Below, piece by piece: positions 431 through 22,214 of a DNA stretch of 28,551 nucleotides. Each line of letters opens with the position of its first letter. Positions within the stretch are counted from its first letter, which is position 1. The DNA comes from Hyphomonadaceae bacterium (GTDB lineage Bacteria > Pseudomonadota > Alphaproteobacteria > Caulobacterales > Hyphomonadaceae). The notes beneath the pieces are model-generated. The model did no database searches. It was given only the letters and a program-made list of their open reading frames with translations, and was not told where the DNA came from. The stretch is from the NCBI GenBank assembly GCA_047601145.1, contig JASGJW010000009.1, forward strand, positions 1 through 28,551. Reading direction: 5' to 3'. The translations under genes were made by a program, and so were the position numbers.

Positions 431-908
431 CCTCGCGCGCCGACTACCCGCAAGGAACGCGACTGTCTACTGTCTCTTGTACGGGACTGTTCCTAAAGTA
501 CAATTCCAGTCGCCGAGGCGCATGCGGGTTTTTCCACGCAGAGCACGTCATCGCGCATGACCGCCGCACAAAAACGACGCTGGTTTCTGGCAATCCGGTA
601 GCGTTGTACGAAACTCACGTCCCTCGCGCACCGGACGACCGCGCCAGGTCGAGCGTGATCGAGATGCTGTGGGCGGGCGAGACGCTGTGGGCGAGAACAA
701 AACATAGCGTGCCACTTCATTAGCGCCGAGGAAGCCGGCGCAGACCACAGCGCGCCCCTAAGACCGCCCCGACGGCGCCATGTACAAAAGTCTGGATTTA
801 TCAAGCGTGTAGAGCGTAGCGCGCGCGGAGCGTTCTGAAAGCTACAAATATTTTCGCCGATCGTGTGACCCGATTTGCCGAGCTGGGACGCCATCAGAGG
901 TAAGACCA

Positions 909-1493
909 ATGGAGTCTCCTTTGATGCAAAGCCCTGTCGTCGACATCTCGCAGATCCCTCAGGCTTATTGGCCGCTCATCGACTGGCTGTTCACCGGCCT
1001 CATCGTCCTGGTCGTCCTCTGGATCGCTTCTACGGTCTTCATCGTTTTGCGCCGCAACGCGTCCGGACTTACACCGGTCCAGGCCGCCCGGATCAACAAG
1101 AACGCGCGTCCCGACTTCCTCGATGGCGATCAAAAGAAGCGCAAGGAGGCCCTGGAGCGGGGCGCCGCCTACGACCGCGAGCTTGAAAAGGCGGAAGCCG
1201 AAGAGCGTGAGGTCGAGCGCAGAAAATCCAAGGAGCCGCTCACGGCGACCCAGCGCCTGATGCGATTGTTGAGCCTCGTCATGGCGCTGTTCTCGCTTGC
1301 AACACTGATCGGCAGCGTGATCTTCCAGATTAACTACATCAGCGGCCTGCTGGAGCAGGCCTCGGCTGGCGACCAAATAATCCAGTTGGTTTTGCGCCAT
1401 CCAATCGGCGTCACGATCGCGGTCGTCGTCATCCTCTATCATGTCGTGACCTTCGTCACCGATAAGAAATGGAAGCCGGCCGAGCAGGTCTGA
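909..1493 (+). CDS. hypothetical integral membrane protein: 1 N-terminal TM, a charged coiled-coil loop, 2 C-terminal TM
   Basis: ATG at 909 with GAGG 8 nt upstream (alternative ATG at 924). The hydrophobic segments are LIDWLFTGLIVLVVLWIASTVFIVL, LLSLVMALFSLATLIGSVIF and PIGVTIAVVVILYHVVTFV. A KR/E-rich loop (KKRKEALERGAAYDRELEKAEAEEREVERRK) separates them. It is the first gene of the module. Confidence 0.6.
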   Translation: MESPLMQSPVVDISQIPQAYWPLIDWLFTGLIVLVVLWIASTVFIVLRRNASGLTPVQAARINKNARPDFLDGDQKKRKEALERGAAYDRELEKAEAEEREVERRKSKEPLTATQRLMRLLSLVMALFSLATLIGSVIFQINYISGLLEQASAGDQIIQLVLRHPIGVTIAVVVILYHVVTFVTDKKWKPAEQV

Positions 1494-1534
1494 TCCGCTC
1501 GCGCCGAATCCCTGACATTCCAGAAAGCTTCATC

Positions 1535-3133
1535 ATGTCCAGCAAGACCCTCCTTGTTAGCGATCCCTCGCTCGTCGCCGAGTTCGTGCGCCAGTCCGAA
1601 TTTCAGGGCATCCTGGAAAAGCGGTTCGCGGTGCCCGAAGATTATCTCGCCATCCTGTTCCGCAACGGCAAAATCGTGGACGCTTACAAGGGCGCTCACT
1701 TCTCCGTTGGCGGGCTTGTGAATTCCCTCAAGGGGATCATTGGCGGCTCAACCAGCATCGGGATGTTGATTGCTGACCTGAAACCATTCCAGGTCAGCCA
1801 GACATTCCGCGCCCTCTCGCAGGACAAGGTGGAGATCGTCGGCGTCGCCGCCATAGAACTTCAGCTGGACCCCGAACAGCCGCAGAATATTCTAGGCATG
1901 ATGTCGGGCCGCCGTTCGCTTTCGCGTGCGGACATTCTTGCTCGCATACGCCCGCACTTATCCGATCGCATTCTGGAAGCCGTCCTGGCGCGTCATGGCG
2001 CGCTGGAGATCCGCGGCAATACCGGCCTGCAGGATAAGATCCAGGCTGACATCATGAAGGAGGTTGAGCGCGTTGTTGGCGGTCTCGGCATCATTGTGAA
2101 CGCCGTATCGATGGAATGGGCGGTCAACGAAGTCGAGCGCAGCGCCATGGATAGCGCGGCGGCCGATCGGGCCGAAGCTGAACGTGAAGTTGCAATCAAG
2201 CGGGCGCTGCGCGAAGCCGAGCGCGTAAAGGATGCGACGGAATTCGCTATCCGCACCGATATAGACCAGAAGAAGTTCGCGCTGGTCAAGGAGCAAGAGC
2301 TTGCTCAGCTCATCCTCAACAAGGAGGTCGAGTTCGTGGACCTGCGCGAGGCGCACCAGCGTCGCCAGGAACTCGAGGTCATCGAGCACGAGGTCAAAAC
2401 ACTTCAGGCCGAACGCGAAGCGCGTTTCGAGAATGAACTGGCCGAAGCCCAGCAAATCCAGGATCTCACTCAGCGAAAGCTTGCGATCAAGAAAATCGAG
2501 CTGGAAATCGAGAAGATGGAGCGCCTGTCGCGCCTCGATCTGGAAAAGATCGAAGCCCTGACGCGCATCGAGATCAACCAAGCCTCTCAGGCCAGTGCGG
2601 CGCAGAATATCGCAACGCTCGCCGGGATCGAGCAGCAGCAGGATGAGCAACGCTCCAACTTGCGGGAAAAAGAAAAGCAGGCCCAACACGAGCGCGACAT
2701 CATCGCGACGAAAGTTGGCAACCAGGCAGAATACGACCTTCTGGCGCTCAAGGGAAAAATGACGCCCGAGCAACTGCTTGCGCAGCAGGCTGGGTTAAGC
2801 CCTGGCGTTGCCGCTGTTCTCGTGGAGCAGGCAAAAGCGCAATCTTCGTCCAAGGACGAAGTCATGCACATGATGCGTGAGCTGGTCGACGCGGCCAAGG
2901 AAGCGCGTGTTTCCTCTGAACAGCAAGCCAAGGCCATGTTCCAGATGGGTATGGACGGCGCGGTGGGAATCGCTTTTGGCGCAGGCGGCAAATCCGCCGC
3001 GCCGGCAACCGCCGCCGAAGCTGCCGGCCGCACGCCGGCTGCAGCTGTCGACATTGATTGCCCAAAGTGCGGCCGGACGAACGCGCCCAAAGCACGCTTC
3101 TGCGCCGGTTGTGGCCATCAGCTGCGGACCTGA
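1535..3133 (+). CDS. SPFH/band-7 (flotillin-like) protein without TM, with long E/A/R-rich coiled coil and C-terminal Cys4 zinc ribbon
   Basis: ATG at 1535 (MSSKTLLVSD). The N-terminal ~230 aa have SPFH-like features (GKIVDAYKGAHFSVGG ... DLKPFQVSQTFRALSQDKVEIVGVAAIELQLDPEQ). A ~250-aa heptad-rich EAxR/K segment follows, as in flotillin repeats. The protein ends with CPKCGRTNAPKARFCAGCGHQL. The stop at 3131-3133 lies 2 nt before the next ATG. The ORF track starts it at 1469 with a non-ATG codon. Confidence 0.65.
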   Translation: MSSKTLLVSDPSLVAEFVRQSEFQGILEKRFAVPEDYLAILFRNGKIVDAYKGAHFSVGGLVNSLKGIIGGSTSIGMLIADLKPFQVSQTFRALSQDKVEIVGVAAIELQLDPEQPQNILGMMSGRRSLSRADILARIRPHLSDRILEAVLARHGALEIRGNTGLQDKIQADIMKEVERVVGGLGIIVNAVSMEWAVNEVERSAMDSAAADRAEAEREVAIKRALREAERVKDATEFAIRTDIDQKKFALVKEQELAQLILNKEVEFVDLREAHQRRQELEVIEHEVKTLQAEREARFENELAEAQQIQDLTQRKLAIKKIELEIEKMERLSRLDLEKIEALTRIEINQASQASAAQNIATLAGIEQQQDEQRSNLREKEKQAQHERDIIATKVGNQAEYDLLALKGKMTPEQLLAQQAGLSPGVAAVLVEQAKAQSSSKDEVMHMMRELVDAAKEARVSSEQQAKAMFQMGMDGAVGIAFGAGGKSAAPATAAEAAGRTPAAAVDIDCPKCGRTNAPKARFCAGCGHQLRT

Positions 3134-3135
3134 TT

Positions 3136-4386
3136 ATGCCCGTTTCCGCTTCCCCCTCGGGCGCTGCGCTAGCCGACCTCAGCCATTTCGGGGTTTCCAG
3201 CCTCGTTGTGGATCACCTTCGGCCGAAATGCTGTCGGGCGAGTGCGCGTAGCTCTGCGGATGCGGCTTACTGCAACGAATGTGGAAACCTCATTCTACGT
3301 TGCGCAGCCTACGAGGAGTGCGGCGGTCTCGTTGATGAAACGGGTTTCTGCCCCTCCTGTTTCAACCTCGAGTCATTTCTCGATTCCGGCGCTGTTCGCC
3401 ACGCGAAGGTTGGCTCCTCGATGACGTTGCCGCTCATATTCCGCAATGCGGGCGGTCACGGGCGCGCGTTGTTTGCATCCGAGCTGTGGATCCGTCAGGG
3501 AGCGGGCGAGCGCGTACGCCAGCCGATTCCCTGGGAGCGGCTGAATGCGGGGCAAAGCGCATCATGGACGTTGCAGACGCAGCCCCTCCAGCAGACCGGC
3601 CGCCAGAGTTTCGAGGTTATTCTCGTCGTCGCCAGCCGTGCTCGTTGGCGCGAGGAAAAGTTCGCTCTTGCCGCAAACATGGAAATCGGCGTCGAGGACG
3701 ATGGTCGGGTCGTCGTAAATCAGACGATCAACGTGGCGGGCGGCGAAGTGGCAGGTGCGGGCCACACGGTCTACGCGCCGATCCGCATCGAGTCAGACAG
3801 CCGCAGCCACGTTCAGGAACAGGGCTCCAAAGATCCTTCCCCGCTTGCGCTTTCGCGGGCGGACGGCTTCGAGCGTGAGCGGCGCCTTCGTGGGACGACA
3901 CACGGTCTGGTCGACAGGACGGTCAAGCTCGAATGGAAGGGATTTTCCCCCGATGAGGCCGGTCCGCTCGGCCCTATCATAACGTCGGATGGAATGCTCG
4001 CGCTTGGCCGATCGCGCCTCAAGTCACAAGAGGGCGTAACCGACGTGCGCCTGACGGTTCGCGATGCCGCCGGCAGGCTCAACAGGGTTCTGAGCGAAGA
4101 GATTTCGCGCCGCCATATCGATCTGTTTGTTCAAAACGGCGCCCTTTGCGTACGGGCTTCGGGCAAGGCCGGTCTGAGAGTGAACGACCAGGGCCTGCGC
4201 CAGGGAGAAGTCATCGCCCTGGGGGATGGCGACCGTCTCGTCGTGTTGCCGCGCCGTCCCACGGCGCTGGCGCTGGACGTCCGCTTTGAAGTTCATCACG
4301 GCGTTGTCGAACTAGTGACGCTGACACGTGTGCCGGCCACGCCTGGCGAGGCCTCCTCAAACATTCGGATGAGAGCAGGATCATGA
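3136..4386 (+). CDS. zinc-ribbon / FHA-domain protein
   Basis: ATG at 3136 (MPVSASPSG). The N-terminus is Cys-rich (CNECGNLILRC ... CGGLVDETGFCPSC). The C-terminal ~100 aa match FHA hallmarks: LGRSRL..(G-R), SRRH (S-R-x-H), a NG..VN-type loop (SGKAGLRVNDQGL) and a GD..L motif (GEVIALGDGDRLVV). The stop TGA overlaps the next start (ATGA at 4383-4386). Confidence 0.6.
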   Translation: MPVSASPSGAALADLSHFGVSSLVVDHLRPKCCRASARSSADAAYCNECGNLILRCAAYEECGGLVDETGFCPSCFNLESFLDSGAVRHAKVGSSMTLPLIFRNAGGHGRALFASELWIRQGAGERVRQPIPWERLNAGQSASWTLQTQPLQQTGRQSFEVILVVASRARWREEKFALAANMEIGVEDDGRVVVNQTINVAGGEVAGAGHTVYAPIRIESDSRSHVQEQGSKDPSPLALSRADGFERERRLRGTTHGLVDRTVKLEWKGFSPDEAGPLGPIITSDGMLALGRSRLKSQEGVTDVRLTVRDAAGRLNRVLSEEISRRHIDLFVQNGALCVRASGKAGLRVNDQGLRQGEVIALGDGDRLVVLPRRPTALALDVRFEVHHGVVELVTLTRVPATPGEASSNIRMRAGS

Positions 4387-5957
4387 AGTGTCCGCATTGC
4401 TCCGTTGCGGTTCCCGAAGACGCGCGTTTCTGCCCCGAATGCGGCAAGCGCATAACCGGTGCGATGGCCGATGCTTCGGCGTCCATGTCGATGCAATCCG
4501 GTCCCGTGCTCACATTCGGCGGGTTGCAGACGATGGATGGGCCTTCCTCGCGCGCCTCCAGCACGGGTTCGACGGAGGCGTTGCTTGAGCCAGGCGATCT
4601 GTTCGCGGATCGCTACGAGATCAAAGCGGTTATTGGGGCAGGGGGGGCGGGCGTCGTCTATGCGGCGCGCGACAAGGTCACATCCGAAGACGTCGCGCTG
4701 AAACTTATCCGACCTGACCGCCTGCATGGGAGCGACGCCGTCTCGCGGCTGGTGCGCGAAGGCGTCACGGCTCGGGGCGTTCGCCACCCTAACGTGATCG
4801 CTGTCTATGACGTTGGAGAAGCTGATGGTCAGCCCTACATGTCGATGGAGCTGGCACAGGGACAATCCCTGAGATCGTGGAACCAGAAACGGCTTGCCGC
4901 GCGCCGTGACTGTTCGTTGAAGACAGCTGCGGTCATCGTGTCAGCGATCCTTGACGGCCTTGAGGCGGCTCACGCGAAAGGGATCGTCCACCGCGATCTC
5001 AAGCCTGAGAACGTGATCCTGACGAGCGAGCCGTCGGATGAGGGCGTCACTCTCAAGATACTTGATTTCGGCATCGCCATCGCGGTTGGCGCGACCACAG
5101 GAATATCGGGTTCCGGGCCTGCAGGCTCGATTGGTTACATGGCGCCTGAACAACTGACGGCCCCCGACACGGTCGGCCCCTCGGCGGACCTCTATTCCGT
5201 TTCGGTGATCTTCTACGAATTGCTGATGGATGCCCCGCCGCAGGGTCACTGGCAGCCGCCCAGCGGCGGGCGCTCTGGTATTTCAGCCGGAATTGACAGC
5301 TTGATCGAGAACAGCCTGTCAAACCGAGCGCGAAGCCGGCCGCAATCGGTTGCCGACTATCGCAAGGCTATGAAAGCCGCACTCGGCCCGATGGGCATGG
5401 TGGACTGGAAGACACTCTATCAGCCGCGTCGCAGCAAGTTGCCGACAAATATCCCAAAGTGGGTGTGGTGGACCGCGGGCATCATCATCGGCCTTAGCGT
5501 GATTGCTTACCTGATGGACGAGTATTCCGGCGCCAGCGGGGGCGACTATGATCAGTACGGTTCGGTGACGCCGGCGACGGCGGTTGGGACAGCGCCCGAG
5601 GGCGCCGTCAAGCAAACTGCCGTCACCGTCCCATCACAGAGGCCAGCTCCCTCGCGTCTTTCGGGTTCGTGGGACGACGGCGCCGGCTCGATCTGGCGGG
5701 TGAACGTCACCGATGGCGGGCAGGTTACCGGTCAGGCGACATCCGGAGCTGCGACGGGGATGGTCATGACGGGCGCCTTCGCCGGCGACCAGTTCAGTTT
5801 TCAGTCGGGCGTCAACGGCTATGGCGCGACGGTGCAGGGCCAAGGGCTCTTTGACGGCGGCTGCCACATCAATTTTCAGTCCTATGACGCTGGAACTGGC
5901 CTGACGTCGGCTGGGCAGATTCATGTCAATCACCCCGCAGGAGCGCCATGCCCATGA
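4383..5957 (+). CDS. Hanks-type Ser/Thr protein kinase: N-terminal zinc ribbon, kinase domain, single TM, extracytoplasmic Gly/Thr-rich domain
   Basis: MKCPHCSVAVPEDARFCPECGKRI is a zinc ribbon. Kinase motifs present: GAGGAGVVY (P-loop), VALK, HRDLKPENV, DFGIA and GYMAPE. The TM segment is WVWWTAGIIIGLSVIAYLM. A ~150-aa C-terminal domain lies outside the membrane. Confidence 0.8.
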   Translation: MKCPHCSVAVPEDARFCPECGKRITGAMADASASMSMQSGPVLTFGGLQTMDGPSSRASSTGSTEALLEPGDLFADRYEIKAVIGAGGAGVVYAARDKVTSEDVALKLIRPDRLHGSDAVSRLVREGVTARGVRHPNVIAVYDVGEADGQPYMSMELAQGQSLRSWNQKRLAARRDCSLKTAAVIVSAILDGLEAAHAKGIVHRDLKPENVILTSEPSDEGVTLKILDFGIAIAVGATTGISGSGPAGSIGYMAPEQLTAPDTVGPSADLYSVSVIFYELLMDAPPQGHWQPPSGGRSGISAGIDSLIENSLSNRARSRPQSVADYRKAMKAALGPMGMVDWKTLYQPRRSKLPTNIPKWVWWTAGIIIGLSVIAYLMDEYSGASGGDYDQYGSVTPATAVGTAPEGAVKQTAVTVPSQRPAPSRLSGSWDDGAGSIWRVNVTDGGQVTGQATSGAATGMVMTGAFAGDQFSFQSGVNGYGATVQGQGLFDGGCHINFQSYDAGTGLTSAGQIHVNHPAGAPCP

Positions 5958-6448
5958 TGCGCTCGCTCATCTTCCCTGGGCTGATTGTGCTCGTCGCCTG
6001 CGGTGAAGCTCCTTTCAAGGCGCCGCGACCGGAAGCGTCCGATCTAGACGGCGCTCCACCAAAATCGATCGCATTCCCCTCGGGAGACTGGACCGACGAT
6101 TACGGTGATTTGTGGAAGGCCTCTGTAGACGAGGGGAAAGTTTCCGCCGTCGCCTCCTGCGGTCCGCGACTTGGCTCGGTGCTTTCCGGCAACGTCGCGG
6201 AGGGCGTTCTCGACTGCAGGATCAGCGATGGCGCAGGCGCTGAGTACGCCGCGGGCCGCGCCCAGCTGATCAACGATCGACATGCGTTCTTCGAAACCCG
6301 CTTTAAGGACGGCAGCGCCACTTCCGAAGGCCTGCTGCACCTCCTTCATGATGCTCCCGTGCGAAAGTCCGGCCCAACCTCCTCGACAGCCTGCGTCGAA
6401 ATCCCGGTTCCCCCGCCGCTGGCGGCCCCGACAAATCCGACGCCCTGA
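5948..6448 (+). CDS. lipoprotein paralogous to the kinase extracytoplasmic domain
   Basis: ATG candidates at 5948, 5954 and 5957, overlapping the kinase stop. The signal peptide carries the lipobox LVA-C (MPMMRSLIFPGLIVLVACGE). SGDWTDDYGDLWKASVDEGKVSAVAS aligns with SGSWDDGAGSIWRVNVTDGGQVTGQAT in the kinase C-terminus. Confidence 0.6.
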   Translation: MPMMRSLIFPGLIVLVACGEAPFKAPRPEASDLDGAPPKSIAFPSGDWTDDYGDLWKASVDEGKVSAVASCGPRLGSVLSGNVAEGVLDCRISDGAGAEYAAGRAQLINDRHAFFETRFKDGSATSEGLLHLLHDAPVRKSGPTSSTACVEIPVPPPLAAPTNPTP

Positions 6449-6481
6449 GTTCAACCCTTTGCCACCCCAGCGGAGCGCGCC

Positions 6482-7444
6482 ATGAGTGAGATGTGGAAAT
6501 CCTATCGCCTCGATACCTGCTTGTTCGAGCCGCCCTCGATCCAGGCGCCCATCCTGCGCGCCACCGCCAGGATTTCAACGCTTCCGCCGCGTGTCGACCT
6601 GAGGCCGCTCTGTTCGAAGGTGGAAGACCAGGGTCAGGTTGGCTCCTGCGCGGCCAACGCCGTCGTTGGCGCGCTGGAGTATCATCAGCGCAAGGCCGGT
6701 CTCAACGTGACCGATCTTTCGCGACTGTTCGTCTACTACAACGCCAGAAATATGGCCAACAAGACTGCGGAAGACTGCGGCACGATGATCTCGCACGTGA
6801 TGGCCTCCGTCCTGGCCTTCGGCGCCTGCGAGGAGCGCTTGTGGCCATACATCGAAGCCATGTGGCCTGAAAAGCCGACACAGGCCTGCTATGGAAACGC
6901 GCTTCGCTATGAGGCGGTGTCTTATGCGCGCGCGCCTTTGGGCGATGCGTGCCTGATAGCCCTGGCGCAAGGCCTGCCGATCGTGTTCGGCACCTTCCTG
7001 CCGAGTGATTTCTATGGTGTCGCCGCGCAAACGGGTGTCGTGCCCGAGGTCAGCGAAAGCGTGGAGGCGCCAGGCGGAGGACACGCAATGCTGCTGGTGG
7101 GTTACGATCTGCCGACGCGCACCTGGCTGGTTCGCAACAGCTGGAGCGAGAAGTTTGCAGACCGGGGCTATTTCCGCATCCCTTTTTCAACGCTCAACAC
7201 CTATTCAATGCCTGATGGGTTCTGGACGATCGGAGCCATTGAAGTTCTCGAGGGCGTTCAGTTGCACGGTCTGGGCGTGCGGGAAGCGATGCGCGCTGCC
7301 AGCATGGCCGCCCCTAACGATGTCGAGAGCAGCCTCGAGCGGTTACGCAAGAATATCCGCAAGAAGCTGAACACTGATCTTGAAGAGAAGAGGAAAGACG
7401 TCCGTGACCGTTTGCGCGGCCCAGGTGTCGGAGGAGGCTACTAG
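6482..7444 (+). CDS. papain-like (family C1A-type) cysteine peptidase, no signal peptide, with C-terminal basic/coiled extension
   Basis: LPPRVDLRPLCSKVEDQGQVGSCAANAVV aligns with papain [31 protein letters not shown], with Gln19 and catalytic Cys25 conserved. GGHAMLLVGYD matches GGHAV..VGY, the catalytic His. VRNSWSEKFADRGYFRI matches the NSWG..WG..GY Asn motif. There is no N-terminal signal peptide, and the disulfide Cys22 equivalent is Val. Confidence 0.75.
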   Translation: MSEMWKSYRLDTCLFEPPSIQAPILRATARISTLPPRVDLRPLCSKVEDQGQVGSCAANAVVGALEYHQRKAGLNVTDLSRLFVYYNARNMANKTAEDCGTMISHVMASVLAFGACEERLWPYIEAMWPEKPTQACYGNALRYEAVSYARAPLGDACLIALAQGLPIVFGTFLPSDFYGVAAQTGVVPEVSESVEAPGGGHAMLLVGYDLPTRTWLVRNSWSEKFADRGYFRIPFSTLNTYSMPDGFWTIGAIEVLEGVQLHGLGVREAMRAASMAAPNDVESSLERLRKNIRKKLNTDLEEKRKDVRDRLRGPGVGGGY

Positions 7445-7557
7445 CCTTCCGAGCGAGCATGCCGGCAAGACAGAAACTGTATTCCCCCGCATCGTCAAAA
7501 ACGAGGAAGCGGGCCAAGACGCGGGCCAAGACAAGGAAGCGGACGAAAACGAGGAAT

Positions 7558-7590
7558 CGGCGAGGGAATGGGCTCGCCGCTTCTTCATGG
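7558..7590. terminator. possible bidirectional terminator hairpin between convergent genes
   Basis: CGGCGAG-ggaatggg-CTCGCCG is a 7-bp stem with an 8-nt loop at 7558-7579. It is followed by CTTCTTCAT on the plus strand and ATTCCTCGTTTTCG on the minus strand. It lies between the peptidase stop at 7444 and the convergent gene stop at 7622. Confidence 0.3.
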
Positions 7591-7621
7591 GTTTACGGCG
7601 ATTGTCGCCTGCACGGCTCGG

Positions 7622-8434
7622 CTACTTCCTGCCCAGCCGCGCCAGCAGCTCAGCCTTTTTCGCTTCAAGTACAGCGTCCAGACCATTCATCGCAGCGGCT
7701 GGTGGTTTGCCGGGGCCGGACCTCGTCGCTGCCAGCGCCTCGCGGGGTGAAACGACTTTTGGCGGTTTCAGTGGTCCCATGGGCGGGATGGGCGCAAAAT
7801 GCGTGGAGGCAAGATAGCCTCCACCTGCGCCTTGGCCCGCCATGGAACCTGGCGCGATGACTTGCAGTTCACCGGCGACGGTCACCAAAGTCTTCAGCAC
7901 CGCGTTGCGGCCGGAGATCATAACCATGGTCTCGCCGGGCGCTTCCGGGATGAAGGCATGCTCCATCTGGTCGCGTCCGCGGGGGAAAAGCCGGAAGATG
8001 CCGCCGTTGGCGCCATAGAGTTCAATAACCACAGAGTGCAGGTCGCGAAGACCCCGCATGCGGTACCGCCACTCACGGCCGGCTTCCGTCTGCCTTGGGG
8101 CTTCGACGTCGATAATGTAGCCCCCGCCGGCGCCGGGCCCATCATCACCCGCACGGGCGCCAGAAGTTGCGGCTACCGTGAAGCTATGGCTGGCCCTTGC
8201 AATCGCTGTTCCGAACTCATCCTGCGCAATCGCATCTATGCGTTCTGCTCCGGGAAAGCTCATGCCTGCGCTGTACGAGAGGGATGTGGCGCCCCGCGTC
8301 TCCTTGATATCAAATCCCACATTGCCGGAGATACCTGCCACGTCGAACTTGATCGAATACGCATCGCCAAAACTGGCGGCTGTTACGGTGATCGAGCCGT
8401 TGTCCGAAACACGCGATGGACCCGTAAGATGCAT
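7622..8434 (-). CDS. hypothetical glycine-rich protein, no signal peptide
   Basis: ATG at 8434-8432 (minus strand) has AGGAG 7 nt upstream. The translation MHLTGPSRVSDNGSITVTAASFGDAYSIKFDVAGISGNVGFDIKETRGATSLSYSAGMSF... has two GAGGGY motifs and a helical basic tail (LEAKKAELLARLGRK). The ORF track extends it to 8731 without a credible start. Confidence 0.5.
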   Translation of the reverse strand: MHLTGPSRVSDNGSITVTAASFGDAYSIKFDVAGISGNVGFDIKETRGATSLSYSAGMSFPGAERIDAIAQDEFGTAIARASHSFTVAATSGARAGDDGPGAGGGYIIDVEAPRQTEAGREWRYRMRGLRDLHSVVIELYGANGGIFRLFPRGRDQMEHAFIPEAPGETMVMISGRNAVLKTLVTVAGELQVIAPGSMAGQGAGGGYLASTHFAPIPPMGPLKPPKVVSPREALAATRSGPGKPPAAAMNGLDAVLEAKKAELLARLGRK

Positions 8435-8643
8435 TTGAAACTCCTGCCGGCCGCATTGGCCCCAACAGGGAAGGCGCAGGATCCGCCGGGAACGGGCCAA
8501 GTCGCCGCCTTTTTTTTGATGAATTTTGGGCCGCGCCCGACCGGCCATCCGCCAGACGCCTTGCGGGCGCAGGTAAAATGAAGTGAAATCAGGCCGCTGG
8601 TTCTCTGGCGGGCGCGCAATCAAAGGGGACGTTGGCGCCTGTC

Positions 8644-8667
8644 GAACGAGTGGGTTGCCGGGTCTGA
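8644..8667 (+). promoter_or_regulatory. candidate ECF-type (autoregulatory) promoter, GAAC -35 / GTCTGA -10 like
   Basis: tcGAACgagtgggttgccggGTCTGAtat lies ~50 nt upstream of the proposed GTG start of the ECF sigma gene and resembles GGAAC..N15-16..GTCT ECF promoters. It is a weak match. Confidence 0.2.
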
Positions 8668-8718
8668 TATTTGTTCCGGGGCGGCCCGCGGGGAGAATAC
8701 CGCAACAGGGGTAGGCGC

Positions 8719-9261
8719 GTGGGCGGTGCAAACAGCGACGAGGAGAAGGGGGCCGGGCGGGCCACCCATCGGGACGCCTTGCTGCGCGAACATTATGACG
8801 AGTTTCGCAGGGTAGCTGGCCGGGTCCTCAATGGGGACGCCAAGGTGCTGCAGATTCAGCCGACCGATCTCGCGCATGAAGCAGTGATCCGTCTCTCAAA
8901 GCTCAATCAGATTGACCTCGAAGGTCGCACGCATTTTCTTTCGCTCTCGGCGCGCGTGATGCGTCAGATCCTGATTGACGAAATTCGCCGGGTGCGCGCA
9001 GCCAAACGTAAACCGCCCACGATTGTCACGCAGCTTCCGCCTGAGCTGGGCCACCAGTCAGTTGATCTTGAAGATCTCGACCGTGCTCTTACAAAACTGG
9101 AAGCGATTGCCCCTGACCATGCCCGTCTCGTCGATCAGCGTTATTTTGCCGGCCTAACGGTTGAACAGATCGCCGTGGTTGAAGCGACGTCCGTCAGCAC
9201 TGTGAAGCGCCAATGGCGAGCCGCCCGCGCCTGGCTGCTTGCGGAACTTGGCGCGCGATAG
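8719..9261 (+). CDS. ECF-family RNA polymerase sigma factor (sigma-70 regions 2 and 4)
   Basis: Region 2-like DLAHEAVIRLSKL and region 4 HTH LVDQRYFAGLTVEQIAVVEATSVSTVKRQWRAARAWL. GTG at 8719 is chosen because an upstream candidate promoter would otherwise sit inside the ORF. The ORF track starts at TTG 8671, so the start is uncertain. The stop lies 3 nt before the next ATG. Confidence 0.65.
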   Translation: MGGANSDEEKGAGRATHRDALLREHYDEFRRVAGRVLNGDAKVLQIQPTDLAHEAVIRLSKLNQIDLEGRTHFLSLSARVMRQILIDEIRRVRAAKRKPPTIVTQLPPELGHQSVDLEDLDRALTKLEAIAPDHARLVDQRYFAGLTVEQIAVVEATSVSTVKRQWRAARAWLLAELGAR

Positions 9262-9264
9262 GTC

Positions 9265-11697
9265 ATGAACCATCCGCTGACCCGCCGCGCTCTTGATATC
9301 TTCGAGCAAGCCCTCGGAATTGATGAGGCGGGGCGGGATCTTTGGCTCGCAACAATTTGCGCAGGCGATGCCGCGTTGGGCAGCGAGGTCCGACGTCTTC
9401 TAGCCGCGGATGCGATCGCCGAGCGAGCCCTGCCGACCGGTGATCTGCAGCCCCGTGACGGGCCTATCCCCGAACACATTGGCCGCTACCGCATTGTCGA
9501 GCGCCTTGGACAGGGCGGCATGGGCGATGTCTTTGCCGGAGAGCGTGATGACGGCCTCTTTGACCATGCCGTCGCTATCAAACGCGTGCGTCCCACGCTT
9601 TTTGCTGAAACCGCCAAATCTTTGTTCGACCGCGAACGCCGCGCGCTGGCAACTCTCAGTCATCGGCATATCGCGCAGTTGTTTGACGGGGGCGTAGATG
9701 AGACCGGCGCGCCCTATCTCATCATGGAACTCGTCCGCGGTGTCTGCATTGACGAATTTGTGCGTCAGCATGACCTTTCACCGCAAAAAATCGCGGCCAT
9801 GATGATCGCGGTCTGTGATGCTGTTCAGCATGCCCACCAGAAGCTCATCGTTCATGCCGATCTCAAGCCAGCCAATATCCTCGTGAACGAAGCGGGCGAT
9901 CCCAAAGTCGTTGATTTCGGCGTTGCGCGACTGATTGGGGAAGGAGGCGAGGGCGGGATCTATCCCCATACGCGAGGCTATGCCAGTCCGCAGCGCGCGG
10001 CCGGCGCTGCGCCAACTCCCGCCGATGACGTCTATGCGCTGGGGGCAATTCTGTGCGTCCTCCTTACGGGCGAGCCCCCTGAGAGCGGTAACGCACTCCT
10101 CACGCCTTCGCGCGTGACCGAGCGGTCAGCTGCTTTTACCGATCGCTCCGCCAATTGGCTCCGATCACGGGCGCGCGAAATGCGGGGCGATCTCGACGCC
10201 ATCATTGCACGGGCCTGCGCTGAAAATGCCGAAGACAGGTATCCCGCCGCCCACGCCCTCTCTGCCGATCTGCAGGCCTGGCTCGAATTTCGCCCGATCG
10301 CGTCCAGGTCTGAAGACACCTTCTATGTCTTTCGAAAATTCGTCCGCCGTCGCCGCTGGCGAGTGATTGGGGGCGCCACATTTTCCATCGCGCTCATCAC
10401 TGCGCTCATCGTCACTGTGTTGCTCTATACTCAAGCCGACTTTCAGCGTCGTCAGGCTGAGGCGCGTTTCGATGAGGTGCATTCGCTCGCAAGGTATTTG
10501 TTATACGATGTCTATGACCGGCTCGAGCAATCCCCCCAGACCCTAGCGATGCGTCGCGACGTTGCCCGCGTGGCTCAGGGCTATCTCGATGTGCTGGCCG
10601 CTGCTCCGTCGGCCCCGCCGGATGTGCTGCGCGAAGCTGCCGAGGGGCTGGTGCGGATTGCCGATCTTCAGGCAGGCCGATCGCGCGCCAATCTTGGCGA
10701 GCTGATCCAGGCTTTGGCAAACCTCGAGAAGGCGAGTGCGATCGCTGCCCGTTTGCCGGAGCACCCGCAGCGGGATGGTTCCACGTTTGCTCTGCGTGCT
10801 GGCATTGCCATTCGCCAGGCGTCCCTGGCGATGAATTCCAATCAGGATTTACCGAGAGCTTCGCGCCTGCTCGATCAGGCCGCGCGAGACATCGCAAAGC
10901 TATCCGACGACGGCAAATTGCGATCAATGCTGACGCTGCAGTTCGAGGTCGAGTCAGCCGTCCTTGCCAACTGGAAGGGCGTCTACGCCGAGGGCGTTCA
11001 GCATGCCCAGCGTGCAATCAATGTTGCGGGTGCTCTGCCCATCAACGCGGCGGATGCCCGCGACGCCCACTATCTCCTGGCGCGCGCGTGGGATGCTTAT
11101 GCGGAGGCCACCTACTACGGCACGGGAGAGGCAGCATCGGTGCCTGCTTACAGCAAGCTCGTGAGCATCGCATCGAGCTATGCGTCATCCCATCCCGACG
11201 ACATGATGGGCGTCAGGATCGCAATCGAAGCTCACTGGGCGCTTGGAACCACCCTCCTCGGCATCGAGCGTCTGCGTGACGGCCTGAGGGAGCTCGATGA
11301 TGCGAACAGGCTCCTTCCCCGGCTGTTGCGGTTCCAGCCCGATGACGAAGGTGCACGTCGGACCCAGCAGATTGTGCTCGGCGCCCGGGCCCAGGCGCTC
11401 GCGATGAATGGGAGGTTCGCCGAAGGGGTGGCCATCCTGAAGGAAAGGCTAGCCTCTGCAGAACAGGCGGCGAGCACGCCAGACGCAGTTGCGGCGGACA
11501 AACGCTCGCTTGCCGTTACAAAGACAATGCTTGCCGATCTTTACGCCGATTCAGGTCGCGCTGGACCCGCGTGCACGCTCTATGACGAGGCCGATGCGAT
11601 CTTTTCTGGCCTTGAAGCGCAGGGTCTTCTGTCTCAGCTTGACCGGGACAGCGCTCAGCGGATGGCGCGCGAGCAGAAGGACAAATATTGCCGATGA
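9265..11697 (+). CDS. membrane Ser/Thr protein kinase (HAD variant of HRD) with C-terminal TM and large helical repeat (TPR-like) domain; likely partner or regulator of the upstream ECF sigma
   Basis: Kinase motifs LGQGGMGDVF, AVAIKRV, HADLKPANIL and DFGVARL, plus an APE-like GYASPQ. The TM segment is VIGGATFSIALITALIVTVLLY. A ~400-aa helical C-terminal domain lies outside the membrane. It is translationally coupled to the sigma gene. Confidence 0.75.
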   Translation: MNHPLTRRALDIFEQALGIDEAGRDLWLATICAGDAALGSEVRRLLAADAIAERALPTGDLQPRDGPIPEHIGRYRIVERLGQGGMGDVFAGERDDGLFDHAVAIKRVRPTLFAETAKSLFDRERRALATLSHRHIAQLFDGGVDETGAPYLIMELVRGVCIDEFVRQHDLSPQKIAAMMIAVCDAVQHAHQKLIVHADLKPANILVNEAGDPKVVDFGVARLIGEGGEGGIYPHTRGYASPQRAAGAAPTPADDVYALGAILCVLLTGEPPESGNALLTPSRVTERSAAFTDRSANWLRSRAREMRGDLDAIIARACAENAEDRYPAAHALSADLQAWLEFRPIASRSEDTFYVFRKFVRRRRWRVIGGATFSIALITALIVTVLLYTQADFQRRQAEARFDEVHSLARYLLYDVYDRLEQSPQTLAMRRDVARVAQGYLDVLAAAPSAPPDVLREAAEGLVRIADLQAGRSRANLGELIQALANLEKASAIAARLPEHPQRDGSTFALRAGIAIRQASLAMNSNQDLPRASRLLDQAARDIAKLSDDGKLRSMLTLQFEVESAVLANWKGVYAEGVQHAQRAINVAGALPINAADARDAHYLLARAWDAYAEATYYGTGEAASVPAYSKLVSIASSYASSHPDDMMGVRIAIEAHWALGTTLLGIERLRDGLRELDDANRLLPRLLRFQPDDEGARRTQQIVLGARAQALAMNGRFAEGVAILKERLASAEQAASTPDAVAADKRSLAVTKTMLADLYADSGRAGPACTLYDEADAIFSGLEAQGLLSQLDRDSAQRMAREQKDKYCR

Positions 11698-11886
11698 TCC
11701 CCTCAGGAAGCGCTATTTGAGCCGACAGCTCTGCCTGTCAGACGAGAGCGTCTACTCCCCCCCTGCAGCCAACTCGGTCCTGGCGGTCCGCAACATCTTG
11801 GCGCGACAGCTCGAGGCGCGTTGACCCTTCAGTTGAGCTCCCACGGCTCCTTGCGTTTACGCGTCAGCAACAATCCATGAATAAGG

Positions 11887-11920
11887 TGCTATTAGCATAT
11901 AGATGCAGCGCGGCGCTGCA
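11887..11920. promoter_or_regulatory. two adjacent palindromes upstream of the pilin gene (candidate operator or 5'-UTR hairpin)
   Basis: TGCTA-T-TAGCA at 11887-11897 and TGCAGCGC-G-GCGCTGCA at 11904-11920, ending 20 nt before the pilin ATG at 11940. Confidence 0.3.
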
Positions 11921-11939
11921 GTCGAGCTGGGTTTGCGGG

Positions 11940-12470
11940 ATGGCATCGCTTCTTCGAAGGCTGTTTGAGCCTCACAAGACCGCATTGCGGTTCACGCTCG
12001 TTGCTTTGGCGTTCGGGCTCTCAACCGTTGGCTTGGCCAGCGCCCAGACAGCGACGAGTTCGTTCAACGTCACGGCGAGCGTGCAGAATGCATGCACGAT
12101 CAGCGCGGCTGATCTGGCGTTCGGCGTCTATTCAACGATCAGCGGCGCCAACCTCGATGGCTCCTCGACGATCCAGGTCAAATGCACCCTCAGCGCGAGT
12201 TATGCAGTCTCGCTGAACGCTGGGACGACTGCTGGCGGCTCGATATCGGCCCGCCTGATGACCAATGGGTCAAGCACGTTGGGCTACAATGTCTACACAA
12301 CCAACGGCCGGACAACGGTCTGGGGGGATGGCACAGGCGGATCCTCTTCGGTTGCCGGCACGGGCACTGGCCTTACCCAGAACCTCACCGTCTACGGACG
12401 CATCGCGGGCGGGCAGAACCTCGCTGCCGGCAGCTACTCGGACGTCGTCACAGCAACGATCAGCTTCTGA
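11940..12470 (+). CDS. spore-coat-U (SCPU) domain / Csu-type pilin subunit
   Basis: Signal peptide MASLLRRLFEPHKTALRFTLVALAFGLSTVGLASA|QT. The mature part is Ser/Thr/Gly-rich with paired Cys (NACTIS ... VKCTLS), as in CsuA/B-like SCPU pilins. The alternative ATG at 11877 would give a 58-aa leader and is considered less likely. Confidence 0.65.
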   Translation: MASLLRRLFEPHKTALRFTLVALAFGLSTVGLASAQTATSSFNVTASVQNACTISAADLAFGVYSTISGANLDGSSTIQVKCTLSASYAVSLNAGTTAGGSISARLMTNGSSTLGYNVYTTNGRTTVWGDGTGGSSSVAGTGTGLTQNLTVYGRIAGGQNLAAGSYSDVVTATISF

Positions 12471-12477
12471 GGCCGCA

Positions 12478-13197
12478 ATGAAGAACACCCCCCTCCCGAC
12501 ATTATGTGCGGCTCTGGCGGTGCTCGCACTCCTGGCATCGCCCCAGCCTGGGTACGCCGTGACCCTGTCGCCGCTTACGCTGGTCATGGAGCGCGACAAG
12601 ACGATCGTGACCCTGCATGTCCAGAACGACGACAAAGAGCCGAGGATATTTGAAGTTCAGGCGTTCCGATGGAGCCAGGAAGGCGGGGAAGACAGGCTGG
12701 CGCCGGCGATCGATCTCGTGGTGACGCCGCCGATCGTGAAGCTCGCTCCGGGAGAAGAAAAAATCATCCGCGTGGGCGTCATGAAGAAAGATCGCGAAAG
12801 CAATGGAGAAAAGGCCTACCGACTTCTCCTGCGCGATATTACCCCGACCGAGCTTCAGGCAGGCGAACTCCATCTGCAGATGCAGTACCTGTTGCCACTA
12901 TTCGTGTCGCCTGTCCGACCGCATGGCGGTGTGCAACTGGTCGAGGCCGCCTCGTCAGACGATACGCGCTGCATAAAGATAACGAACACCGGGAATGTTC
13001 ACGCCAAGCTCGTGTGGACGGCGGGAGATGGAGCGCCGGAAAGCGTCTCGCCGACGCAGAAATATGTTCTGGCCGGGGGGCAGACGCTCTACTGTCCAAA
13101 GGTCGCCTCCGCCGAAATGGGGGCCGCGAGGGTTGGCGTTACATCGGCCTATCAGAGCGAGGTGACTTCCTATGAGGTCATGCCGCCCGCACATTAG
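12478..13197 (+). CDS. periplasmic pilus assembly chaperone (PapD/CsuC-like)
   Basis: ATG at 12478 with GAGG 6 nt upstream. Signal peptide MKNTPLPTLCAALAVLALLASPQPGYA. PapD-like features include TPPIVKLAPGEEKIIRV (PP..L.PGE...RV). The ORF track start at 12265 overlaps the pilin and is rejected. Confidence 0.75.
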   Translation: MKNTPLPTLCAALAVLALLASPQPGYAVTLSPLTLVMERDKTIVTLHVQNDDKEPRIFEVQAFRWSQEGGEDRLAPAIDLVVTPPIVKLAPGEEKIIRVGVMKKDRESNGEKAYRLLLRDITPTELQAGELHLQMQYLLPLFVSPVRPHGGVQLVEAASSDDTRCIKITNTGNVHAKLVWTAGDGAPESVSPTQKYVLAGGQTLYCPKVASAEMGAARVGVTSAYQSEVTSYEVMPPAH

Positions 13198-15535: not shown

Positions 15536-16023
15536 CCGTTCTGGCCCGCATGGGTTGGCTTCTCATTTTCTGGCTGGCCTCGGCAGGACCTGCCAGCGCG
15601 AGCTGCGTTGGCGTCAAGTGCACATGTTCGGTCACCGGCAACACGATCAGCTTTGGGAGTTACGCGCCAACGGCGCCAGGCGACGTGAAGGTTGCGGCCG
15701 ACATCAGCGTCACCTGCAAGGCTTTCGTGCTGGGCGTGATTTCCTATGAGATACAGCTTGGTCCAGGGATTTACGGGACCCTCTCGGACCGCAAGATGAG
15801 CAATGGCGCCAGCTTGCTGTCGTACAATATCTATACGAACGCAGCCCGCACGATCATCTGGGGTGACGGCGCGGGCGGAACCGGCGTGGTGGGCGATTCC
15901 TATCTCCTTGCCCTCAACGCAACGCGCACGGAGACGGTGTCGATGTACGCCAAGCTGGGCGCAGGACAGAATGTCAGTGCTGGTTCGTACTCGGATACGA
16001 TCGTCGCCACAGTCGTCTATTGA
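15532..16023 (+). CDS. second SCPU-domain pilin-like subunit (minor or tip subunit)
   Basis: ATG at 15532 overlaps the usher stop (ATGA). Signal peptide MTVLARMGWLLIFWLASAGPASA. It has Cys pairs (CVGVKCTCSV ... VTCKAF) and a C-terminal GSYSDTIVATVVY that parallels the first pilin's GSYSDVVTATISF. Confidence 0.7.
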   Translation: MTVLARMGWLLIFWLASAGPASASCVGVKCTCSVTGNTISFGSYAPTAPGDVKVAADISVTCKAFVLGVISYEIQLGPGIYGTLSDRKMSNGASLLSYNIYTNAARTIIWGDGAGGTGVVGDSYLLALNATRTETVSMYAKLGAGQNVSAGSYSDTIVATVVY

Positions 16024-16147
16024 GGCGTCCGGACCGGTCTGGATCGGCCCGTTCTTGTCGCGGCGACCGTTCGAGCTTCTGTTAGATGTCGACAGTTGGC
16101 GACGAAACCGGCGCCATGGGCGCGGCGGCGTCCGAGCGTATAGCCTG

Positions 16148-16175
16148 CATTACCGGCCTGACATTACTGGCCTGA
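16148..16175. repeat. tandem 14-bp direct repeat (cattacCggcctga / cattacTggcctga)
   Basis: Two adjacent copies differing at one position, ~107 nt upstream of the ATG at 16282. Confidence 0.5.
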
Positions 16176-16281
16176 AATGACCCTGCCTGCGCCACAATCC
16201 GCCCGGATCGCGCCCTTCGGAAGCCGTTCCGGGAACTAGCCTCGGGTCTTGATCGTATAGGGACAGGACTGGGAGGCCGAC

Positions 16282-16668
16282 ATGCAACGACTGACCGCAA
16301 TGACAATGGGCGCCATCCTGCTCGGACTGGCCGGTTTCGTTTATGACAGCGCATCGGCGCAGGCGCCGAAAGCCTGTTCGACCCGTGCAGTCGACATCTA
16401 TTTCGAAAAGGACTCAGCCGAGTTCAACTCGTTCTCGCAGCAACTTGTCGAGCGCATGGCGCAGGAAGCTCGCAGCTGCGGGTCGAAACAGGTTCTAGTC
16501 GAGAATGCGTCCGGCCCAAGCCGCGCGAATGCGGTTTCGCAGAAGCTGCGTAGCCTGGGCGTTCAGGTGATCTTCGCGCCTCAAAAAGCCATGGCGCCGG
16601 CGGGTGACTCGATTGCGGACCGCGCCGTCACACTGCGGGTGGCTGGCAAGGCCGCCGCGGTCGGCTGA
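16282..16668 (+). CDS. small secreted protein, weak OmpA-C-like signature
   Basis: Strong GGGAGG Shine-Dalgarno 6 nt upstream. Signal peptide MQRLTAMTMGAILLGLAGFVYDSASA. IYFEKDSAEF ... resembles the start of an OmpA C-terminal domain, but the domain is short and the call is tentative. Confidence 0.45.
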   Translation: MQRLTAMTMGAILLGLAGFVYDSASAQAPKACSTRAVDIYFEKDSAEFNSFSQQLVERMAQEARSCGSKQVLVENASGPSRANAVSQKLRSLGVQVIFAPQKAMAPAGDSIADRAVTLRVAGKAAAVG

Positions 16669-16731
16669 TCTATCCCGGCAGAAGCGAAGCGTGCCACATT
16701 CCCGTCGCTCATGGCGACTCGGAGTGACGCG

Positions 16732-17466: not shown

Positions 17467-17548
17467 TACTGGAGCCGGGGATTGTCGTTCCGTCACGCTG
17501 GCGTCGGTGAGGCCTCGTGCTACAAGCCGCCGCTGACGTGGGATCCCG

Positions 17549-18247: not shown

Positions 18248-18256
18248 CAGAAGCGT

Positions 18257-20833: not shown

Positions 20834-20882
20834 GACGTCAATGTAGGGTGCGAGCGCGATTCCGTCACGCCGCAGCTGTGTG

Positions 20883-22151: not shown

Positions 22152-22214
22152 CAATTTTCCCCAACACATGGCGTGAGCCATCGTGCCGGACAGTACGGAA
22201 TTTTCCGGGAGGGG

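Follow-up and report, generated by a model that had tools for sequence, protein, structure and literature searches.

A tightly packed run of plus-strand genes on contig JASGJW010000009.1 of a Hyphomonadaceae bacterium (assembly GCA_047601145.1), whose full length of 28,551 bp is referred to here as the window, encodes three consecutive proteins that each carry a cysteine-rich zinc-ribbon motif: an SPFH-fold protein, a forkhead-associated (FHA) domain adaptor and a Hanks-type Ser/Thr kinase. The three ribbons are conserved together in about 80 divergent orthologous operons, and profile comparison places those of the SPFH protein and the kinase in one family (Pfam Zn_Ribbon_1/DZR). The best explanation of the locus as a whole, held tentatively and at slightly less than an even chance, is that it encodes an SPFH-centred sub-membrane module for signalling and proteolysis, in which the ribbons would act as assembly tags and a neighbouring sigma factor/kinase pair would control expression. 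The ribbons and the genes that encode them are as follows.

1535..3133, plus strand: SPFH-fold protein with a C-terminal ribbon, 532 aa (start as in NCBI protein P0014)
3059..3115, plus strand: Cys4 ribbon of the SPFH protein, CPKCGRTNAPKARFCAGCG, followed by the tail HQLRT and thus five residues ahead of the stop codon
3136..4386, plus strand: double-ribbon, immunoglobulin-like (Ig-like) and FHA domain adaptor, 416 aa
3229..3360, plus strand: Cys8 module of the FHA adaptor, CCRASARSSADAAYCNECGNLILRCAAYEECGGLVDETGFCPSC, with the pattern CC-x12-CxxC-x6-C-x5-C-x9-CxxC; a derived double zinc ribbon
4383..5957, plus strand: ribbon-bearing Hanks-type Ser/Thr kinase, 524 aa
4389..4445, plus strand: Cys4 ribbon of the kinase, CPHCSVAVPEDARFCPECG, codons 3-21

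The FHA start codon (ATG at 3136) lies 2 nt past the SPFH stop codon (3131-3133), and the FHA stop and kinase start overlap as ATGA at 4383-4386. An earlier note on this DNA, made from the letters alone, had placed the same Cys4 motif on all three proteins, exactly at the gene boundaries. All three motifs were recovered at the positions that it gave. Their placement at the boundaries is accurate for the C-terminal end of the SPFH protein and the N-terminal end of the kinase, whereas the FHA module begins 31 residues into its protein; the common Cys4 motif likewise holds for the SPFH protein and the kinase but not for the FHA protein, whose module has eight cysteines, the leading CC pair having been overlooked.

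Zinc ribbons of three consecutive proteins

The SPFH protein, for which 373 homologues were found, was assigned by its fold because searches by sequence were uninformative: it has no Pfam Band_7 (PF01145) or Band_7_1 match even at E-values up to 10, NCBIfam and PDB sequence searches returned nothing informative, and precomputed PF01145 hits occur in a minority of its orthologues. An AlphaFold2 (AF2) model built from a 44-sequence alignment (predicted local distance difference test score, pLDDT, 73) comprises an alpha/beta domain, long coiled-coil helices, a disordered tether and the ribbon. The top 50 Foldseek matches of this model in the PDB are all SPFH-fold proteins (best E=6.6e-9, probability 1.00), including prohibitin, stomatin, HflK/C, flotillin, QmcA and major vault protein, and the SPFH label of the earlier note is therefore right at the level of fold. 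Hydropathy gave no transmembrane (TM) segment. The tether, an Ala/Gly/Pro segment at residues 474-503 with pLDDT <50, precedes the ribbon, which scores 23.4 bits against Zn_Ribbon_1, just under the cutoff of 25, and also matches DZR, Zn_ribbon_3 and DUF7577; many orthologues have precomputed PF13240 hits. The four cysteines, the Gly and R531 are invariant in the 44-sequence alignment, and all 84 copies have the spacing C-x2-C-x10-C-x2-C-G. The extreme C-terminus, H-x-(L/M)-R-T before the stop codon (nt 3116-3130), is nearly invariant and its terminal Thr is conserved.

The kinase ribbon exceeds the Zn_Ribbon_1 cutoff of 25 with 28.9 bits, matches the same three further families (DZR, Zn_ribbon_3 and DUF7577) and has the same C-x2-C-x10-C-x2-C-G spacing in all 82 orthologues. 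It is followed by a linker, a kinase domain (Pfam Pkinase, 141.8 bits) in which the motifs VALKLI, HRDLKPEN, DFG and YMAPEQ are conserved (74 orthologues), a TM segment at residues 360-379 as judged by hydropathy, and a periplasmic Cys-containing domain. The linker holds the motif GGL(E/Q)T (residues 46-50, nt 4518-4532), whose Thr, T50 in the window kinase, is present in at least 80% of the 74 orthologues and is a candidate autophosphorylation and FHA-docking site. The duplicated kinases of loci L058 and L082 each keep the ribbon, and the ribbon of the second kinase of L071 is located on a frameshifted upstream open reading frame (ORF).

The FHA protein comprises the Cys8 module, an Ig-like beta-sandwich (approximately residues 78-215) and an FHA domain (approximately residues 255-400; Pfam FHA, 24.0 bits against a cutoff of 20.7). 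Its AF2 model (pLDDT 83; predicted template-modelling score, pTM, 0.81) matched in Foldseek the FHA domains of Rad53, RNF8 and PNKP (probability 1.0) and Ig-like folds; E-values of the whole model against the PDB are weak (at least 2e-3), so that these matches confirm the FHA and Ig-like folds and are uninformative on the ribbon module. Of the phosphothreonine-binding residues (GR and SRRH motifs), G291, R292, S324 and R325 do not vary, while R326 and H327 are kept in at least 90% of sequences. The NCBI gene call for this protein (P0001) has 321 aa and begins at about residue 96, which cuts the module off. The 416-aa ORF from the ATG at 3136 is the real gene, because the module is conserved in 54 homologues, and the truncated call that hid it is corrected here.

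All eight cysteines of the module are invariant in the 54-sequence alignment, the module is kept in homologues down to 34-42% identity, and Cys8 is present in nearly all FHA proteins of the operon loci; in the planctomycete locus L078 the last cysteine is replaced by His, a conservative change of metal ligand. Pfam ribbon families match the module with 12.5-16.8 bits against cutoffs of 25-27.3, the best and still weak match being DZR (13.8 bits, profile positions 1-44 of 45). In the first ribbon of the module, the second half (consensus LDRDATFCGECG) resembles the kinase profile (z=4.5) and the SPFH profile (z=3.2). A library-wide HMMER search with the module returned almost only the N-termini of proteins of about 370-400 aa; since these sizes and the N-terminal position fit this FHA family, the Cys8 module is, as far as its homologues tell, a derivative specific to it.

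In a collection of 185,579 species, a relative is encoded by at least 127 candidate stretches, and 80 genome loci were found with an SPFH alignment, of which 59 had enough flanking sequence to be assessable. The FHA gene and the kinase gene are each present in 58 of these 59 loci, a gene for a protein with three TM segments (the 3-TM protein) lies directly 5' of the SPFH gene in 58, and a gene for a papain-family (C1) cysteine peptidase is present in 55. The exact order TM-SPFH-FHA-kinase-C1 occurs in 41 of the 59, with variants in the others, and the same order was seen in metagenome loci examined as neighbourhoods of FHA homologues. The hosts are chiefly Hyphomonas and Henriciella, together with Sphingomonadales, about nine metagenome-assembled genomes (MAGs) of Pirellulaceae/Planctomycetota and single MAGs of other phyla, assignments from MAGs being subject to possibly imperfect binning. 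In the closest metagenomic relative of the window (L006, 8001-12268), the kinase, FHA and peptidase genes are split into several ORFs and the FHA gene is read through to 496 aa; these broken genes are probably assembly or frameshift errors.

Ribbon profiles built from about 75 orthologues of each kind show that the SPFH and kinase ribbons resemble each other well beyond their cysteines. The two profiles align with 19.7 bits against a column-permuted null of -15.2 +/- 6.5 (z=5.4; 0 of 20,000 permutations), and they share preferences at P2, G5, L/N8, P9, A12, F14 and G19. On average, eleven unrelated ribbons that have this spacing and come from the same loci score 17-25 bits less; a high-scoring "unrelated" ribbon of L071 proved to be the frameshifted N-terminus of the second operon kinase and was dropped from this background set. 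The likeness thus lies above that of random same-spacing ribbons, and Pfam comparison assigns the two Cys4 ribbons to the same family rather than to unrelated ones. The earlier note had called the pair alike almost residue for residue; the two match the same Pfam models and are identical at 9 of 19 residues, including A-R-F-C, and such likeness is typical of random cross-locus pairs.

A recent domain shuffle at the gene junctions, which the earlier note had offered as one of its two explanations, would have copied one ribbon onto the neighbouring genes, by shuffling or by gene conversion. Only the position of the ribbons near gene boundaries and the surface resemblance of the window pair, with its nine identical residues, speak for it. 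All three ribbons occur in about 80 divergent orthologous operons, and orthologous ribbons are closer to each other (identity outside the cysteines 0.49 among SPFH ribbons and 0.36 among kinase ribbons) than are neighbouring ribbons (0.27-0.29). Identity between SPFH and kinase ribbons is not raised within a locus, at 0.268 against 0.285 between loci (permutation p=0.997), and the 33% identity outside the cysteines of the window pair is reached or surpassed in 42% of SPFH/kinase pairs drawn at random across loci. In DNA the two coding segments of the window share 54% identity, and they use the same codon at four of the nine identical residues, and the shared P2, G5, A12, F14 and G19 are preferred by both profiles across loci. 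The shuffle is therefore rejected, on the closeness of orthologues over neighbours, the lack of a within-locus excess and the low DNA and codon identity, and has practically no probability left. Judged from these comparisons, the ribbons are ancient and independently maintained copies of the common bacterial Zn_Ribbon_1/DZR module. Each Cys4 site probably binds zinc, as the invariant cysteines and the Cys-to-His change of L078 suggest.

Possible roles of the ribbons

The three ribbons differ systematically in charge. The SPFH ribbon with its tail has a net charge of +3.2 +/- 1.0 (positive in 99%), the FHA module one of -3.3 +/- 1.8 (negative in 91%) and the kinase ribbon one of -1.0 +/- 1.7 (negative in 53%), and among the three the SPFH ribbon is the most basic in every one of 76 loci. 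Column 11, the only position at which the SPFH and kinase profiles clash, is Lys in SPFH ribbons and Asp in kinase and FHA ribbons. This pattern fits an electrostatic docking of the acidic ribbons on the SPFH ribbon, and fits equally a lipid-binding SPFH ribbon. In two loci, L071 (15915-18560) and L082 (15890-18406), the peptidase is a tandem fusion in which two to three Cys4 ribbons, a C1 domain, a further ribbon and a second C1 domain follow one another; these ribbons are of a subtype without the A-x-F signature, and every cytoplasmic component therefore bears ribbons in that lineage.

A role as a shared docking module of the three proteins, the other explanation of the earlier note, is plausible from these data, because the ribbons are co-conserved, their charges are asymmetric, the peptidase carries ribbons in two loci and the YdjI and YdjG proteins of Bacillus subtilis provide a precedent. 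In an SPFH-centred sub-membrane module of this kind, the neighbouring sigma factor of ECF43 type (extracytoplasmic function, ECF), phosphorylated by its own partner kinase, would switch the operon on. The 3-TM protein would hold the SPFH protein at the inner membrane, where the latter would oligomerise into a ring or cage, each subunit presenting its basic ribbon at the end of a flexible, roughly 30-residue tether. The FHA adaptor and the cytoplasmic N-terminus of the kinase would bind, through their acidic ribbons, the SPFH ribbons or a common site, the peptidase ribbons of some lineages would join the same binding, and the signalling components would be concentrated at the scaffold. The kinase would phosphorylate a threonine, for which the GGL(E/Q)T linker supplies the candidate, the FHA domain would read it and the peptidase would be the output. 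The most specific form of this proposal, a heterotypic ribbon "velcro" by which the SPFH ring or cage captures the acidic ribbons of the FHA adaptor, the kinase and, in some lineages, the peptidase into a scaffold-bound phospho-signalling and proteolysis machine, is rather unlikely. If it were true, having the ribbons encoded at gene junctions would help the proteins to assemble while the polycistronic mRNA is being translated, and the common Zn_Ribbon_1/DZR modules of sub-membrane proteins, including those of YdjI and YdjG, would gain a testable role.

Several points weigh against ribbons that bind one another. Zn_Ribbon_1/DZR is a very promiscuous terminal module of membrane-associated bacterial proteins, whose copies may serve separate purposes, and anionic lipid is an equally possible ligand of the basic SPFH ribbon. 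Lys and Asp at column 11 show no association across loci (Fisher p=0.59), charge correlations between ribbons are weak (r about -0.3, uncorrected for phylogeny), and no locus-specific covariation was found, within-locus identity not being raised; the top pairs in mutual information between SPFH and kinase ribbon columns resemble clade signatures, not contacts. The Cys8 module has a pLDDT of about 90 within the FHA model, which suggests that it forms part of the packed protein body and is not a free tag. As regards expression, the promoter-like motif described below was found in just 27 of 79 upstream regions under the strict pattern. The B. subtilis two-hybrid contacts in the available extract of the published work are YdjH-YdjI, YdjH-PspA and YdjG-YdjH, and YdjG-YdjI is not among them (PMC8581546).

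The main rival, supported by the compact and confident FHA model and by the missing covariation, holds that the ribbons are generic modules, each serving its own protein and unrelated to the others: the kinase ribbon would regulate the kinase or position it close to the membrane, the FHA module would be structural and the SPFH ribbon would bind anionic lipid. Three ribbons would then be present merely through the great frequency of this module on sub-membrane proteins of bacteria. This is a credible alternative, though clearly short of an even chance. The FHA module is modelled with confidence in a compact protein (pTM 0.81) and is nearly confined to its family, the uniformly basic SPFH ribbon resembles a lipid-binding element, neighbouring ribbons show neither excess similarity within loci nor significant covariation, and N-terminal ribbons occur elsewhere, on YARHG proteins (PMC3355149), PspC (PMC11237479) and actinobacterial kinases (PMC7159879). 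Generic modules would account less readily for three ribbons with invariant cysteines that are co-conserved in one operon across phyla, for the ribbons on a fourth operon protein in some lineages and for the systematic charge asymmetry between the SPFH ribbon and those of its partners; the pairing of a ribbon-bearing SPFH protein with a ribbon-bearing partner moreover recurs in the unrelated ydjGHI operon (PMC11237479).

A thiol/zinc redox switch, in which oxidative or electrophile stress would free zinc from all three proteins and change their activity or assembly, the cysteine peptidase being redox-sensitive too, is quite improbable. It would draw on 16 invariant cysteines in three co-expressed cytoplasmic proteins, on the cysteine protease and on the link of the operon to an ECF stress sigma factor, and oxidation-sensitive zinc centres are known from RsrA-type (ZAS) anti-sigma factors and Hsp33. 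The ribbons, however, match the structural Zn_Ribbon_1/DZR family and not ZAS or Hsp33 motifs. No thioredoxin, peroxidase or similar Pfam family was found among the ORFs scanned, which comprised those at 909-9261 (E<=0.1) and ten at 9265-22181 (E<=0.001), and ECF43-type sigma factors are described as activated by kinases, not by redox state (PMC8999054).

Terminal Zn_Ribbon_1/DZR ribbons decorate many bacterial membrane-associated proteins, and an experimentally assigned function for them was not found in the literature searched. The operon is a clean case in which three, and sometimes four, proteins of one SPFH-centred system carry a ribbon, with a systematic charge asymmetry, and the idea of ribbons as assembly tags is directly testable in the culturable host Hyphomonas neptunium.

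Other operon components, the sigma factor and the surrounding genes

The remaining components of the operon and the adjoining sigma factor/kinase pair are as follows.

866..893, plus strand: putative ECF-type promoter, TGACCCG-N15-GACGCCA, a conserved motif just upstream of the operon
909..1493, plus strand: 3-TM protein, 194 aa; first gene of the operon
5948..6448, plus strand: lipoprotein-like accessory protein, 166 aa
6482..7444, plus strand: papain-family (C1) cysteine peptidase, 320 aa
8671..9261, plus strand: ECF43-like sigma factor (Pfam Sigma70_ECF, PF07638)
9265..11697, plus strand: partner Ser/Thr kinase of the ECF sigma factor, 810 aa

The 3-TM protein has hydrophobic segments at residues 19-51, 116-148 and 156-186 by hydropathy and a charged loop, and a Pfam search gave no family at cutoff. 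It is the probable membrane anchor of the SPFH protein, which would be attached through this upstream partner. The 166-aa lipoprotein-like ORF carries a hydrophobic segment at its N-terminus and is paralogous to the periplasmic C-terminal domain of the kinase (5650-5957), as seen in the resemblance between SGSWDDGAGSIWRV of the kinase and SGDWTDDYGDLWKA of the ORF; it is confined to a single subclade (12 of 59 loci).

The peptidase scores 50 bits against Pfam Peptidase_C1 (cutoff 20.7), and its Gln, Cys (SCxANA), His (GHAML) and Asn (NSWG) motifs are conserved among 81 sequences. It has no N-terminal hydrophobic segment and no recognisable prodomain, its C-terminus forms a conserved basic helix, and it is a cytoplasmic enzyme, presumed to be the effector of the system. 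Its tail in the window, RLRGPGVGGGY up to the stop codon (7418-7444), resembles the motif G-(P/Q)-G-A-G-G-G-Y that occurs twice, as GPGAGGGYIIDVE and GQGAGGGYLAS, in an unannotated 369-aa ORF on the minus strand (7622-8731). The tail RLRGPGAGGGY is common to the subclade that also holds the lipoprotein gene, and the GPGAGGGY-type motif may be a short linear recognition or cleavage motif.

The sigma factor matches PF07638 with 117.7 bits and has QPTD where ordinary ECF sigma factors have DAED in sigma2.2; its orthologues have STGD, SSGD or QPTD at this position, STGD being found in 33 of 51. A Ser- or Thr-containing replacement of DAED characterises the ECF43 sigma factors that are activated by kinases, among them EcfP (STTA) and EcfK (QATE) (PMC8999054, PMC13147305), and one ECF43 sigma factor of Hyphomonas neptunium has been reported as kinase-activated (PMC8999054). 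The partner kinase (Pfam Pkinase, 124.5 bits) has one TM segment (residues 365-393) and no ribbon. Of the 59 loci, 42 have an ECF sigma gene and 44 a second kinase no more than 10 kb from the operon, usually in divergent orientation. Most Hyphomonadaceae loci have the pair upstream and divergently oriented, and its position downstream and on the same strand in the window therefore implies a rearrangement.

Upstream of the operon, the motif TGA[CT]CC[GC]-N15-xC[GC]CC[TA], always 28 nt long, was found in 27 of 79 regions against 0.33 expected from shuffles, with no occurrence on the reverse strand of the 79 regions, and 24 of the 27 motif-bearing loci hold an ECF sigma gene. Adjacency and the promoter-like motif suggest that the operon is a target of the ECF43-like sigma factor. 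In the window only 16 nt separate the end of the motif from the annotated ATG of the 3-TM gene; translation of this gene may in fact begin at its second Met (924), or its mRNA may be almost leaderless.

A gene for tRNA-Thr (TGT), on the minus strand (356-430), adjoins the operon on its upstream side, and the GC content gives no sign of an island. Further downstream are a Csu-type chaperone-usher pilus cluster (11877-16023), comprising an SCPU subunit, a PapD-like chaperone, an usher and a second SCPU subunit, and the gene for methionyl-tRNA synthetase (18257-19981), which has its own Cys4 knuckle (18650-18710) with x9 spacing and no A-x-F, an unrelated ribbon. A known anti-phage defence system was rejected as an identity for the operon: PADLOC gave the two kinases only generic kinase-domain matches (PD-T4-6, mad6, PglW) and none for the TM, SPFH, FHA and C1 proteins.

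Independently of the ribbons, these results define a widespread operon of an SPFH scaffold, an FHA adaptor, a receptor kinase and a cytoplasmic papain-like peptidase; an ECF43 sigma factor activated by phosphorylation probably has this operon as a target. In the literature searched, a description of an operon with this combination of SPFH, FHA, kinase and zinc-ribbon components was not found, nor was a description of the Hyphomonas ECF43 sigma regulon, and a search on the H. neptunium locus tags HNE_1633-1637, among which HNE_1635 denotes the FHA orthologue, was without result.

Comparison with known systems

The closest precedent is the pspA-ydjGHI operon of B. subtilis, in which YdjI consists of a band-7 domain with a C-terminal zinc ribbon, and YdjG of two N-terminal zinc ribbons, an NTF2-like domain and a TM segment (PMC11237479). 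YdjI requires YdjG and YdjH for its membrane localisation (PMC8581546). Common to both operons is an SPFH protein without TM segments that ends in a zinc ribbon, encoded beside a protein with a double N-terminal ribbon and beside integral membrane partners. The double-ribbon partner in the window is, however, a soluble Ig-FHA adaptor rather than an NTF2-TM protein, the operon further includes a C1 peptidase and a kinase with a ribbon, and the SPFH protein is without detectable similarity to Pfam Band_7 or Band_7_1. Neither the PspA_IM30 nor the TPM (YdjH) Pfam family was found among the ORFs scanned from 909 to 22181.

Compared with the Zn_Ribbon_1 (PF13240) and DZR (PF12773) families themselves, the SPFH and kinase ribbons align over their full length and the FHA module aligns weakly to the whole of DZR, but only the kinase ribbon exceeds the curated cutoff. 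The FHA module departs further from these families in having CC in place of the first CPxC knuckle and C-x5-C in place of the third.

The combination of an SPFH protein with a protease is shared with HflK/C-FtsH, and the best structural matches of the SPFH model include the HflK/C-FtsH and QmcA-YbbJ complexes. In the archaeal stomatin-STOPP/NfeD systems an SPFH scaffold is likewise encoded with a protease. The protease of the window operon is a papain-family cysteine peptidase, in contrast to the AAA+ metalloprotease and the ClpP-like serine protease of these systems, and an NfeD domain was not detected in the operon.

Mycobacterial PknG-GarA combines a kinase that has a Cys4 rubredoxin-like domain with an FHA protein recruited by its phosphothreonines. 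The window operon resembles it in having a Hanks-type kinase with an N-terminal Cys4 site and an FHA partner, Thr-containing N-terminal segments being the candidate docking sites. PknG is soluble and has no SPFH partner, and its rubredoxin domain packs on the kinase lobes, whereas the window kinase has its ribbon about 50 residues from the kinase domain; the PknG_rubred profile gave a single match, to the FHA module of one ortholog (E=0.058).

FraH of Anabaena has an N-terminal double zinc ribbon with canonical CxxC knuckles, a Pro-rich linker and a C-terminal FHA domain. By this description the FHA adaptor is laid out similarly, with an N-terminal double ribbon and a C-terminal FHA domain, and differs in the Ig-like domain that replaces the Pro-rich linker. 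FraH has a role in organising intracellular membranes (PMC6584798).

The three-part architecture of the SPFH protein has a counterpart in the archaeal "Meth_adaptin" ESCRT loci, where an SPFH domain, a coiled coil and a zinc ribbon are combined in one protein (PMC10936438). Those loci differ from the window operon in being archaeal and linked to Vps4/ESCRT-III, and in having no set of kinase, FHA protein and C1 peptidase. Ribbon-bearing kinases (PMC7159879) and ribbon-bearing single-pass membrane proteins (PMC3355149) have been noted elsewhere. The sigma factor/kinase pair is comparable to EcfP-PknT of Vibrio parahaemolyticus and EcfK-PknS of Xanthomonas citri, in which a PF07638 sigma factor is likewise encoded beside a TM Ser/Thr kinase, and differs from them in adjoining the ribbon operon, neither of its proteins having a ribbon itself. 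The operon described here is a fresh variant of a known theme, in which zinc ribbons are carried by an SPFH protein and by the partners encoded with it.

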